DNA from: a bacterium
Lineage (GTDB): Bacteria; UBA8248
Assembly: GCA_965199855.1 (NCBI GenBank)
Contig: OZ241326.1
Coordinates: 160,001-224,000 of the forward strand
DNA length: 64,000 nt
Direction: 5' to 3'
The notes beneath the pieces were generated by a model. That model made no database searches, was not told the DNA's origin, and saw nothing but the letters and a program-made list of their open reading frames with translations. The position numbers were made by a program, and so were the translations under genes. Below, piece by piece: positions 9,045-14,784 of this stretch. Positions within the stretch are counted from its first letter, which is position 1. The number at the start of each line of letters is the position of its first letter.

Positions 9045-9136
9045 TGGCGGAGAGGGAGGGATTCGAACCCCCGGTGCGGTCGCCCGCACAACAGATTTCG
9101 AGTCTGCCGCCTTAAACCGGACTCGGCCACCTCTCC
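9045..9136 (-). tRNA. tRNA-Ser(CGA)
   Basis: GGAGAGG acceptor stem, anticodon arm GCAGA-CT-CGA-AA-TCTGT, long variable arm, GGTTCGAATCC, encoded CCA. Confidence 0.96.
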
Positions 9137-12307: not shown

Positions 12308-13111
12308 TTGCCATTCTACAGAATCTCCGAAATGGAGGCGCAGTTCGTCGATATGGGAAAGGCCCGGATGCGGAGCGCGGCCGGGGAGCTCATGAAGGCG
12401 GGCGTGATCACCTACCCCGAGGACGGCGGCCCGCCGCCTCACTTTCACCCGAACGAGGAGCAGTTTCTTCTGGTGACGGAGGGAGAAGCGAACGTGATTC
12501 TGGGGGAGGAGACGCGCGTCGTCCGCCCCGGCGATTTGGTCCACATCCCCCGGAACGAGCGGCACGGGCTTCGCATCCTGGAGGGGCCGTTCTCCTTCTT
12601 CACCGTGAAGAGCCCCGCGGGCGACGGCGACCTCTACCAGGACTACAACAGGGCCGCGGACGCCGAGGAGGCGCGAAAAAAACTGGAATCCGTCCCGCCT
12701 TCCCCGGAAAGGAAAGTCCGGACGCCCTTTTACAGAATGGAAGACCTGCCGCAGGGCCGCTCGAAAGTAGGCCCTGCCGTCAGCCACGCGACCGCCGGCG
12801 AGTTGATGAAGGTGGGCTGGGTCATCTACCCGCAGGGGGAGGGGCCGCCGGCGCACTTTCATCCCAACGAAGAGCAATACATCCTGATGCTCGAGGGGAG
12901 GATGAACATGATCTGCGGGGAGGAGACGCGCGAAATCGGCCCCGGCGACCTCGTCCACATCCCCAGAAACACGCGCCACGGCATCCACATCACCCAGGGG
13001 CCGGCGAAATTCTTCGCCGCCAAGAGCCCGGCGGGCGACGGAACGCTGGATCAGGACTACAACAGGGCGGCCGACGCGGACGAGGTGAGGGAGCGTCTGG
13101 CGAATTCGTAA
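12308..13111 (+). CDS. Bicupin (two tandem cupin domains)
   Basis: Two copies of HFHPNEEQ...GDLVHIPRN..HG...KSPAGDG.L.QDYNRAADA. Confidence 0.88.
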   Translation: MPFYRISEMEAQFVDMGKARMRSAAGELMKAGVITYPEDGGPPPHFHPNEEQFLLVTEGEANVILGEETRVVRPGDLVHIPRNERHGLRILEGPFSFFTVKSPAGDGDLYQDYNRAADAEEARKKLESVPPSPERKVRTPFYRMEDLPQGRSKVGPAVSHATAGELMKVGWVIYPQGEGPPAHFHPNEEQYILMLEGRMNMICGEETREIGPGDLVHIPRNTRHGIHITQGPAKFFAAKSPAGDGTLDQDYNRAADADEVRERLANS

Positions 13112-13163
13112 GCGGCGAATCCGGCCAGGCCGGCGGAGACGGCCCTGCCGGCTCCCCTCCTCC

Positions 13164-13691
13164 TCACCGCCGCCGGGACTGCGCCGCCATGCGTTTTTTG
13201 CGGAACCGCACGGCCTGGATGACGTCCTGCCAGACGAGACGGCCCAGGGGGCCCGAACTATAGACGGCGATGTTCACCTTCCCGTCCGGGGAGAGCAGGA
13301 AGTTGGTCGAATGCAGATAGGGCCTCGGCTTCTCGCCGGCTTCCGGGGCGTAGTAGGCGCCGAGCGCCTCGGAGACGCGCGCGGGGTCCAGGCTGTGGCC
13401 CACCGGAAAGTTCACCTTGCTCGCCTCGATGGATCGCAGGGCCTCCTCTTCAGGATCCGTGGACGCCGCGACGACCTTGACGCCCTCCGCTTCCAGCCTT
13501 TCTCCCGCCCGGGAGAATCCCGCCAGCTGGGCGAGTCAGTAGGGTCACCAGTGGCTTCGGTAGAACAGCGCGACGCCCCAGGAGCCGCGCAAATCGTCGG
13601 GAAGCGCGATTTCCCCGCCGCCCGCCTTCGGGACGCGGAGGCTCGGAAAGTCATCCCCGGTATCGAGAAAGAAGTCGTTCGCCTTCGGCAT
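13164..13691 (-). CDS. Peroxiredoxin/AhpC-TSA-like selenoprotein with U-P-Y-U (two Sec)
   Basis: One frame from ATG 13691: MPKANDFFLDTGDDFPSLRVP...LFYRSHW-TGA-PY-TGA-LAQLAGF... joins ORF 13164..13415. TGAs at 13545-13547 and 13536-13538 (codons 49 and 52) occupy both Cys positions of the WCPYC motif. Collinear with the upstream paralog. Confidence 0.85.
13500..13517 (-). promoter_or_regulatory. Putative bacterial SECIS hairpin
   Basis: TTCTCCC-GGGC-GGGAGAA. The loop is 34 nt after the first TGA and 25 nt after the second. Confidence 0.65.
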
Positions 13692-13816
13692 GACGCGCTC
13701 CCCTTGCTCAAAAAAACGAATGCGCCCGCCTCATCCGCCCGGGATGCGGGCACGCGCGCAAAAAGCCGCCCTCCCGAATCCGGCCGTCGGAAGGGCGGCT
13801 TCGGGAATGCCCGCGC

Positions 13817-14314
13817 CTAGTTCTGCGCCGCCATCTTCTTGAAAAACTGAACCATCCCCAGGACGTCCTGCCACACGAGCCGTCCGATGGGCCCGGTGCT
13901 GTAGACGGCCACGGCGACCGTTCCATCGGGCTTCAGGACGTAGCCCGTGCCGTGAAGAATCTGGCGCCTCTCCTCGTAGAAGCAGCCGGTGAGCTCGGAA
14001 ATCCGCTTGTTGTCGAGGCCGTAGCCCACGGGAAAGTTCAGCCCGCATTCATCGATCGTTCCCCTGGCCTGCTCTTCCGTGTCCACGGAAGCCGCAACAA
14101 CCTTGACGCCCTCCTCCCGGAGCTTCGCCGCCCGGTCGAAGGCCGTCAGCTGCTGCTTGCAGTAGGGTCACCAGTGGCCTCGATACAGCAGAACCACCCC
14201 CCAGTCGCCCGCGAGATCGCCGGGCAGGGAGATTTTCCCTCCGCCCACCCGATCCGCCTCGACGTCCGGAAAGGGATCGCCCGAATCGATCATCCTGTCC
14301 GTCATGCGCGGCAT
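13817..14314 (-). CDS. Peroxiredoxin/AhpC-TSA-like selenoprotein with U-P-Y-C
   Basis: ATG 14314 with GGAGG RBS: MPRMTDRMIDSGDPFP...LLYRGHW-TGA(14168-14170)-PYCKQQL... in frame with ORF 13817..14086. Confidence 0.9.
14123..14141 (-). promoter_or_regulatory. Putative bacterial SECIS hairpin
   Basis: CTTCG-A-CC-GGGC-GG-CGAAG. Same GGGC loop, 34 nt after the TGA as in the paralog, with a different stem sequence. Confidence 0.65.
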
Positions 14315-14381
14315 CAATGCGTCCTCCGAAAATGAATGAAGCGAAAGCGGGCCCCGAAGCGGCGAGGCCCCAGCCCGTTCA

Positions 14382-14410
14382 TTTATACCCGCGCGCCGCG
14401 GAGATTTCAA
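14382..14410 (-). promoter_or_regulatory. Sigma70-like promoter of the seleno-peroxiredoxin pair
   Basis: TTGAAA-17 bp-TATAAA on the minus strand. Confidence 0.55.
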
Positions 14411-14449
14411 ACCGCGCCGATGGCGCCGGGGCTTCTCACCGAGTCGCCC

Positions 14450-14478
14450 TTGACATCGAGAGGGCGGCTTCCTAGCAT
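14450..14478 (+). promoter_or_regulatory. Sigma70-like promoter (divergent)
   Basis: TTGACA-17 bp-TAGCAT. Confidence 0.55.
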
Positions 14479-14505
14479 GGGGCCGGTTCTTCGGGAGAAT
14501 AGCGA

Positions 14506-14784
14506 ATGAGCGACGCCATCGCCTGCGAATGCGGGAATCTGAATCTGCAGGGCGCATACGAGAAAGCCTCCGAAGCCTGCCATCGGGAGGTTCATCTCTC
14601 CACGGAGGACGCGGAGCGCTATCTTCCGCGGGACGAATCCCAGCAAAACCAGATCATCTCGAAGCAGTGCCGGATTCCCCCCCTCACCAGCGTCATCCGG
14701 TATGGGCCGGACTACTACGTGCTCAAAAAGGGCCGGGTCATGCGGGAGGGGTTCCGCAGGACGCTTCCCGAATACAGGCAGTAG
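14506..14784 (+). CDS. Small hypothetical protein (CEC...CH...C)
   Basis: 92-aa ORF with GGGAG RBS, its own promoter and protein-like composition. Confidence 0.7.
   Translation: MSDAIACECGNLNLQGAYEKASEACHREVHLSTEDAERYLPRDESQQNQIISKQCRIPPLTSVIRYGPDYYVLKKGRVMREGFRRTLPEYRQ

Follow-up and report, generated by a model that had tools for sequence, protein, structure and literature searches.

The window analysed here is a 64,000-nt stretch of a bacterial genome (GTDB lineage UBA8248; assembly GCA_965199855.1, contig OZ241326.1, positions 160,001 to 224,000 of the forward strand). On its minus strand it carries a gene, called gene A in the following, that very probably encodes a genuine selenoprotein with two selenocysteine (Sec, U) residues in a single redox motif (UxxU), as a member of a peroxiredoxin (Prx)-like thiol:disulfide oxidoreductase family. 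The gene A coding sequence (13167..13691) comprises 175 codons from the ATG at 13691, is followed by a terminal TGA stop at 13164-13166, and is interrupted in translation only by TGA codons at positions 49 and 52. Within the context Y-R-S-H-W-U-P-Y-U-L-A-Q, these occupy the N-terminal, nucleophilic Cys position (UGA1, Sec49, 13545..13547) and the C-terminal, resolving Cys position (UGA2, Sec52, 13536..13538) of a CxxC motif. A Shine-Dalgarno-like sequence (AAGGGGAG, 13698..13705) lies 6 nt 5' of the ATG, and the start, MPK or MAK at 47 codons before the motif Trp, is common to all gene A orthologs. The original prediction of a TGA pair at both Cys positions of a WCPYC-type motif, in a frame otherwise intact and collinear with a neighbouring paralog, is borne out by this translation and by the product of the adjoining gene B, to which the gene A product is collinear and 54% identical over its whole length. 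The implied view of the neighbour as a plain WCPYC paralog did not hold, as gene B itself reads W-U-P-Y-C. That gene A encodes a genuine UxxU selenoprotein of the thioredoxin or peroxiredoxin fold, as had been proposed, is supported by the Sec machinery of the genome, by the interchange of Cys and TGA codons among homologs and by selection downstream of the second TGA. Open reading frames on the opposite strand over the region (for example 13311-13820 on the plus strand) were unsupported and were treated as shadow frames typical of GC-rich sequence.

The organism has a full bacterial Sec system. The genome to which the window belongs, 3.04 Mb in a single contig with a marker completeness of 100%, contains selA (548 bits), selB (372 bits), selD (344 bits) and a tRNA-Sec (79 bits), each above its curated cut-off, and ARAGORN likewise identified the latter as tRNA-SeC with anticodon TCA. 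The check for selA, selB, selC and selD suggested with the original prediction, which was to be abandoned had the genome lacked Sec machinery, returned all four components. The selD gene has one in-frame TGA of its own (locus L010, G000:C1:2985603-2986568, minus strand) and encodes Sec in the context AGG-U-GSKLGPEDL; a 6-bp hairpin with the loop GGA begins 11 nt past this UGA, a tighter spacing than that of gene A. A sub-threshold match to the tRNA-Sec model within the window (9049-9136, minus strand, 39.6 bits against a cut-off of 47) is probably an ordinary tRNA with a long variable arm. The genome also holds a third TGA-containing Prx-like gene (locus L025, approximately G000:C1 1361249-1361521, plus strand), which reads ...YRGHF-U-GVC... 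and whose product has a signal-peptide-like N-terminus and retains the Arg (RPAVFIID). These features make a secreted, peroxiredoxin-like UxxC selenoprotein the probable product.

The recurrence of the TGA pair was assessed in 61 genomes, comprising 60 relatives and the genome of the window, by a six-frame search that found the gene in 42; the motif was extracted from every locus. Gene A orthologs (group A), recognised by the pattern ...RSHW-U-PY-x-[LIV]AQ..., occur in 33 of these genomes. Every one of the 33 has TGA at codon 49 (30 complete ortholog loci and 3 further ones), and codon 52 is TGA in 15, of which 8 belong to the window's genus and 7 to four other genera of the family; UxxU genes are thereby present in five of the seven genera that have gene A. 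The other 18 genes carry TGC or TGT at codon 52. Across the orthologs the codons beside the TGAs vary synonymously (CCC/CCT/CCG and TAC/TAT), whereas the TGAs are fixed. Two of the 18 UxxC copies are damaged, one by an internal deletion (L145, G007:C1:1512142-1513783) and one by a frame break (L146, G017:C320:1897-3664), and the latter may be an assembly error, the G017 assembly being 79% complete. The single-copy genes with the motif in the sister family and in one further family of the order (L135-L139 and L142) are all UxxC; two additional sister-family loci (L140 and L141) gave no line in the motif filter and stand outside this count.

Beyond these relatives, a protein database search with gene A returned 78 matches. 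All 26 matches of at least 59% identity are only 100-122 aa long and cover 51-68% of the query, and the two of these short matches that were aligned both begin past the motif, which indicates that public gene calls truncate these genes, in keeping with the earlier expectation that gene callers would fragment them. Among the full-length matches (158-177 aa, 42-56% identity), the 11 that were aligned mostly read WCPYC or WCPFC, with two deviating at the first position. A scan of species-representative genomes, from which 80 loci were kept, showed both UxxU and UxxC forms in metagenome-assembled genomes (MAGs) titled Nitrospinota, Nitrospinaceae, Candidatus Tectomicrobia or unnamed. A Thermodesulfobacteriota MAG (L119) encodes W-U-P-F-C in a product 42% identical to that of gene A, and the remaining loci, from Actinomycetota, Alphaproteobacteria, Gemmatimonadota and others, have CxxC (WCPYC or WCPFC), apart from one without a motif line. 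Finally, metagenome contigs were scanned with an exact pattern that combines the motif and the hairpin described below; of the 17 contigs recovered, 14 are UxxU and 3 UxxC, and every contig not cut short continued with an intact frame of 120-124 codons past the motif. The expected interchange of Cys and TGA at codons 49 and 52 was hence found, as WCPYC in distant homologs and as TGC/TGT at codon 52 in the 18 orthologs. A further feature of the motif region is seen at codon 53 (13533-13535 in gene A), where the first base is C or A (Leu or Ile) in all 29 UxxU genes, while Val (G) is present solely in UxxC genes, in 8 cases. This bias could be a context effect on UGA read-through, or could simply reflect shared ancestry.

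Both TGA codons were also consistently recovered in independent sequence data. DNA near-identical to the locus is present in sequencing runs of 8 studies, several labelled as sponge or marine metagenome. Contigs from four of these studies, compared with positions 13100-14400 (1301 nt), showed 19 single-base differences and one insertion, none of them at 13536-13538 or 13545-13547, and all four runs cover both sites. Reads with TGC or TGT would have counted against the original prediction; these contigs agree with TGA at both codons. An alternative genetic code or a sequencing error was considered and rejected: TGA also ends gene A, the in-frame TGAs align only with Cys codons in homologs, and the independent contigs agree. 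Downstream of the motif, the ratio of nonsynonymous to synonymous substitution rates (dN/dS) for codons 53-169 was 0.05-0.20 between UxxU orthologs (8 of 10 pairs measurable, 2 saturated), similar to the values for codons 1-48, indicating that the sequence past the second TGA is under purifying selection.

The two TGAs are thus real and conserved, and not chance nonsense mutations, given their recurrence in 15 of the 33 orthologs and 14 of the 17 metagenome contigs, the Cys residues in homologs and the low downstream dN/dS. The argument that two random nonsense mutations are unlikely to strike exactly these codons is strengthened by their reappearance at the same two codons. One could nevertheless suppose that translation truly ends at the second TGA, or that the gene is in decay, with a 51-residue peptide as the only product or no functional product at all, since release factor 2 competes at any UGA and two related genomes carry the damaged copies mentioned above (the internal deletion in G007 and the frame break in G017), though both of these are UxxC. 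This explanation appears highly improbable: the TGA at codon 52 is kept, with intact downstream frames, in 15 genomes of five genera and in 14 contigs from metagenomes, it is exchanged for no codons other than those for Cys, and the sequence behind it has a dN/dS of 0.05-0.2.

Decoding of both UGAs would be carried out by SelB and Sec-tRNA(Sec), using as selenocysteine insertion sequence (SECIS) a hairpin within the reading frame (hairpin 2, UUCUCCC-GGGC-GGGAGAA, 13517-13500 on the minus strand). This element of 18 nt, recovered both in the minimum free energy (MFE) fold and by RNAalifold, has a perfect 7-bp stem and lies at +31 to +48 past the U of UGA1, with its GGGC loop beginning 34 nt past UGA1 and 25 nt past UGA2. 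Bacterial SECIS elements have a G in the apical loop (within its first two positions), within a window of 16-37 nt past the UGA. The stem is identical in 28 of the 30 complete orthologs, and the sole change within those 28 is a C to U in the loop of two. The two orthologs among the 30 without the hairpin (genus g8), and additionally G025, are all UxxC, while the hairpin is present in all 15 UxxU genes. In a codon alignment, a single codon was used at 6 of 142 degenerate columns, and five of these six are codons 60-64, coinciding with hairpin 2. This is the only run in gene A without synonymous change, and a run of five arose in 0 of 100,000 shuffles; two of the frozen codons (GGA and GAA) end in A within an otherwise GC-rich gene. 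It is because hairpin 2 coincides with the only synonymously invariant codon run that it is considered the likely SECIS.

Upstream of this element, the RNAalifold consensus contains a smaller hairpin with a 5-bp stem (hairpin 1, UCGCC-CAGCU-GGCGG, 13520..13534, minus strand), which begins 10 nt past UGA1, directly behind UGA2. It is common to UxxU and UxxC orthologs, with 95% of cells paired, compensatory changes in two of five pairs and 6 unpaired cells among 24 distinct rows. Its role may be accessory, or it may act as a second SECIS. Hairpin 2, in turn, has an unaltered stem in the clade's 13 UxxC orthologs. Since it is equally invariant in orthologs with UGA1 only, hairpin 2 would in all likelihood act on UGA1 and also, being close by, on UGA2, and a single SECIS for both codons is the arrangement that the comparative data moderately favour.

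Several observations nevertheless speak against assigning both codons to hairpin 2. Its stem never varies, so no covariation exists among the orthologs, and an Rfam scan of positions 13000-14500 (E up to 10) gave chance-level matches only and no SECIS family. The 34 nt between UGA1 and the loop is also long, considering that the hairpin in the organism's own selD begins at 11 nt, and the other hairpin, with some covariation, starts only 10 nt past UGA1. Moreover, a strict spacing between UGA and SECIS is said to have been described in E. coli by Heider and co-workers in 1992, so that one element efficiently serving two UGAs 9 nt apart is not a given. The alternative is a tandem arrangement with one element per codon, in which hairpin 1 would direct Sec insertion at UGA1 and hairpin 2 (13517-13500) at UGA2; in its favour, the position of hairpin 1 is close to the 11-nt spacer of selD, and hairpin 1 has the compensatory changes and the extensive pairing given above. 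Such a division of labour is nonetheless considered unlikely. Both hairpins are kept in orthologs with UGA1 only, and the invariance of the hairpin 2 stem in the 13 UxxC orthologs of the clade would be unexpected if it served UGA2 alone. Furthermore, the loop of hairpin 1 (CAGCU, CAGAU or CAACU) has no G in its first two positions, unlike the bacterial SECIS consensus, and nothing equivalent to hairpin 1 is conserved in gene B, which has a single UGA.

The history of the second position was examined on a maximum-likelihood tree of the 30 complete orthologs, with codons 49-52 removed and with a test for changes that is independent of the root. The U/C state at codon 52 requires 7 changes by parsimony, and branches with good support make at least 4 of them unavoidable. 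UxxU is the state of the basal lineages, and UxxC that of the outgroup genus, gene B and the sister family. The pattern tentatively suggests one early gain of Sec at codon 52 followed by several reversions.

The gene A product matches the Pfam family AhpC-TSA (PF00578) over residues 12-139 with 68.2 bits against a cut-off of 26, and the Redoxin family (PF08534) also matches. An AlphaFold2 model built from 38 sequences reached a mean predicted local distance difference test (pLDDT) score of 94.5, and the best Foldseek matches to this model are peroxiredoxins of the BCP, Prx6-type and AhpC groups, with template modelling (TM) scores of 0.69-0.78, ResA following further down. In a profile search of PDB sequences, the w-C-P-y-C segment aligned with f-T-P-v-C of peroxiredoxins, which places Sec49 at the Thr of the Prx TxxC and Sec52 at the peroxidatic Cys. 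The remaining Prx active-site positions are altered as well, the Pro corresponding to R45 and the Arg to S128, so that the typical site (PxxxTxxC and a conserved Arg) is lacking in the profile alignment to Prx structures. Judged by this alignment, the site is a thioredoxin/ResA-type CxxC made with Sec on a Prx scaffold, and the absence of the catalytic Thr and Arg points to a chemistry that is thioredoxin/ResA-like rather than that of a classical peroxiredoxin. Of the original description as a peroxiredoxin-like protein, the AhpC/TSA fold (68 bits) and the UxxU motif on a thioredoxin/peroxiredoxin fold therefore stand, while a classical peroxiredoxin is contradicted by the replaced Thr and Arg. 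The N-terminus is acidic and lacks a hydrophobic segment, so that neither a signal peptide nor a membrane anchor is recognised and a cytoplasmic location is probable.

Gene A would accordingly encode a cytoplasmic thiol:disulfide-type oxidoreductase of 175 aa in which both redox Cys of W-C-P-Y-C are replaced by Sec (W-U-P-Y-U). In the proposed cycle, the exposed N-terminal Sec49 would attack an oxidised substrate, either a disulfide or possibly a peroxide, after which Sec52 would resolve the adduct to give an intramolecular diselenide, to be re-reduced by cellular reductants. In the UxxC orthologs and in gene B, the oxidised intermediate would instead be a selenenylsulfide. On the model of CxxC oxidoreductases, the attacking role is assigned to Sec49, because this residue is always Sec and occupies the N-terminal position. 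Reduction of a diselenide is thermodynamically difficult, which weighs against the scheme and makes the proposed cycle speculative. On the other hand, synthetic UxxU glutaredoxin analogues, attributed to Metanis and colleagues (2006), are reportedly far more reducing than the CxxC form and still recycled enzymatically, and this recycling would make a working diselenide couple plausible. On balance, a diselenide catalytic cycle is somewhat favoured.

Two other functions were weighed against the proposed diselenide oxidoreductase. The main role could be that of a selenium-dependent peroxidase, in which Sec52 would be oxidised by peroxide and resolved by Sec49. Residue 52 does fall on the peroxidatic Cys of Prx in the alignment, peroxiredoxins are nearest in structure, and Sec-containing Prx (TxxU) is a selenoprotein family listed in the tables of PMC13188914. 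This role is nonetheless rather unlikely, since the Thr, the Arg and the upstream Pro of the Prx site are replaced by U49, S128 and R45, respectively, and since codon 52 encodes Cys in 18 of the 33 orthologs and in every gene B while codon 49 always encodes Sec, which marks position 49 as the key catalytic residue. Alternatively, the UxxU pair might be a ligand site for a metal or metalloid, for instance in the handling of Hg, Cu, As or Se, without any catalytic redox couple. Other bacterial UxxU entries in the review tables of PMC9312934 and PMC13188914 are metal-binding proteins, the latter review, from 2026, states in one passage that Sec may act as a metal ligand in some families, and no reductant partner is encoded in the neighbourhood of the gene pair. 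Such a function seems improbable, however, given a fold and a W-C-P-Y-C context of the kind usual for thiol:disulfide oxidoreductases and a neighbourhood that contains no genes for metal transport or resistance.

Gene A forms a tandem selenoprotein gene pair with gene B (13817..14314, minus strand; 164 codons and a TAG stop), the UxxC paralog directly upstream, whose in-frame TGA (W-U-P-Y-C) lies at 14168-14170. Gene B is UxxC in all 28 related loci and is always directly upstream of gene A, with an RNA structure downstream of its UGA that is more variable than that of gene A. Short contigs from other organisms, found in two runs, match only the 31-nt stretch 14157-14187, which surrounds the gene B UGA and active site, and this stretch is thus highly conserved at the nucleotide level beyond the lineage. 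Between the two genes lies a terminator-like, GC-rich hairpin followed by UUUUU (13760..13799, minus strand; the fold of 13685-13825 has -72 kcal/mol and a z-score of -2.7), and a second hairpin with a U-run is located just 5' of the gene A ribosome-binding site. A simple pattern scan for promoters and terminators gave nothing relevant for gene A and did not list the hairpin at 13760..13799. The intergenic distance varies from approximately 33 to approximately 150 nt among relatives. The two genes may have separate transcripts, or attenuation may act on them.

Divergently from gene B, the plus strand encodes a Cys-containing protein of 92 aa and no known family (14506..14784), for which no match was obtained in Pfam, NCBIfam or the ESM Atlas. 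According to tblastn, it is found beside the gene pair in 25 of 29 related loci, including those of other genera, and in an alignment of 17 sequences it has two invariant residues, C7 and C55, and a nearly invariant one, C25. A role as partner, substrate or regulator of the pair is possible. The pair is flanked by plus-strand genes: below it are a creatininase-family gene, an alpha/beta hydrolase, a cyclase and a double cupin, and above it the 92-aa protein and a cupin, followed by HflK/C-like Band 7 genes on the minus strand. A tentative picture of the whole locus, somewhat less likely than not, is that one invariant SECIS recodes two UGAs 9 nt apart, that the resolving residue alternates repeatedly between Sec and Cys among related species, which would give a natural series of diselenide versus selenenylsulfide enzymes possibly tuned to selenium supply or redox demand, and that the recurrently adjacent 92-aa Cys protein could be a dedicated substrate or partner.

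Two Sec residues in one redox motif are rare, and no bacterial UxxU protein is known to have been studied biochemically. The locus provides a clean test set, with 15 UxxU and 18 UxxC orthologs at 60-90% identity, an adjoining UxxC paralog and a sharply defined candidate SECIS, for the questions of how bacterial SelB handles closely spaced UGAs and of what a diselenide adds over a selenenylsulfide. As public annotation cuts both genes A and B to fragments, redox inventories of these symbiont lineages miss both. The host itself belongs to an uncultured lineage, public relatives of which are labelled Nitrospinota or Tectomicrobia.

By domain and motif, gene A is assigned to an already catalogued family. 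The tables of PMC9312934 and PMC13188914 contain a predicted selenoprotein family named 'Prx-like thiol:disulfide oxidoreductase' (PF00578) with the motifs UxxC and UxxU, to which the 2026 table of PMC13188914 ascribes 1~2 Sec; contrary to its original description as hidden, this type of protein is already known to the field. The family is represented there by WP_010940744.1 and attributed in these reviews to a 2004 study of the prokaryotic selenoproteome, and passages in PMC1794560 and PMC1976440 place it in Geobacter, Syntrophus, Desulfotalea and Olavius symbionts. An indirect link to this representative is the UxxC homolog of the Thermodesulfobacteriota MAG (L119), 42% identical to the gene A product. 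As stated in PMC13188914, only a small subset of prokaryotic selenoprotein families has 2-3 Sec. Gene A agrees with the family entry, as far as the catalogue passages describe it, in the AhpC-TSA domain, in having Sec at the first position of a CxxC-type motif, with Sec at the second as an option, in the existence of Cys homologs and in a function that is predicted. It differs in its lineage, labelled Nitrospinota/Tectomicrobia, and in the occurrence of near-identical DNA in sponge and marine metagenomes. A literature search linking selenoproteins with Nitrospin*, Tectomicrobia, Entotheonella or sponge symbionts found no paper that covers both, although the supplements of selenoproteome surveys, which lay outside this search, may list such sequences. 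What the locus adds to the catalogue entry is the toggling between Sec and Cys at the resolving position within a genus, a sharply delimited, invariant hairpin that both UGAs would share, and a conserved UxxC/UxxU tandem with a small Cys-protein neighbour; the tandem pair, the toggling and the hairpin are absent from the catalogue passages of PMC9312934 and PMC13188914.

Another bacterial comparison is the 'Prx-like 2' family of ocean (GOS) metagenomes, for which PMC2398784 reports UxxU forms. Both are UxxU variants of Prx-like proteins from bacterial or marine sources, found in metagenomes, but PMC2398784 puts that family at a great distance from Prx and calls its similarity to the N-terminal domain of SelP (pfam04592) low, whereas gene A is a clear PF00578 member. 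The original prediction had named SelL as the classic example of a UxxU motif. This eukaryotic and aquatic UxxU Prx-like selenoprotein, reportedly described by Shchedrina and co-workers in 2007, is said to provide a precedent for a diselenide between Sec residues three positions apart. Gene A shares with it the UxxU redox motif on a peroxiredoxin-like thioredoxin fold, and a weak match to the NCBIfam model 'SelL-related redox protein' (NF040769, SelL_rel_redox; 26.1 bits, E 5.5e-6) might hint at a bacterial member of the SelL family. Such kinship is exceedingly improbable, since 26.1 bits is far below the SelL_rel_redox cut-off of 120, Pfam at E up to 0.01 gave nothing besides PF00578 and PF08534, and WCPYC proteins from Actinomycetota and Alphaproteobacteria stand closest to it. 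The recoding signals differ as well, the candidate SECIS of gene A being a bacterial in-frame hairpin and the SelL element being located in the 3' untranslated region (UTR). The gene A product finally resembles both the ResA/TlpA-type CxxC oxidoreductases and typical Prx in its fold, with ResA (3c71, 1st9) and Prx6/BCP as the best sequence and structure matches, and it shares the W-C-x-x-C arrangement with ResA. It is set apart by having neither signal peptide nor membrane anchor, by Sec in place of Cys, and by the loss of the Prx catalytic Thr and Arg.

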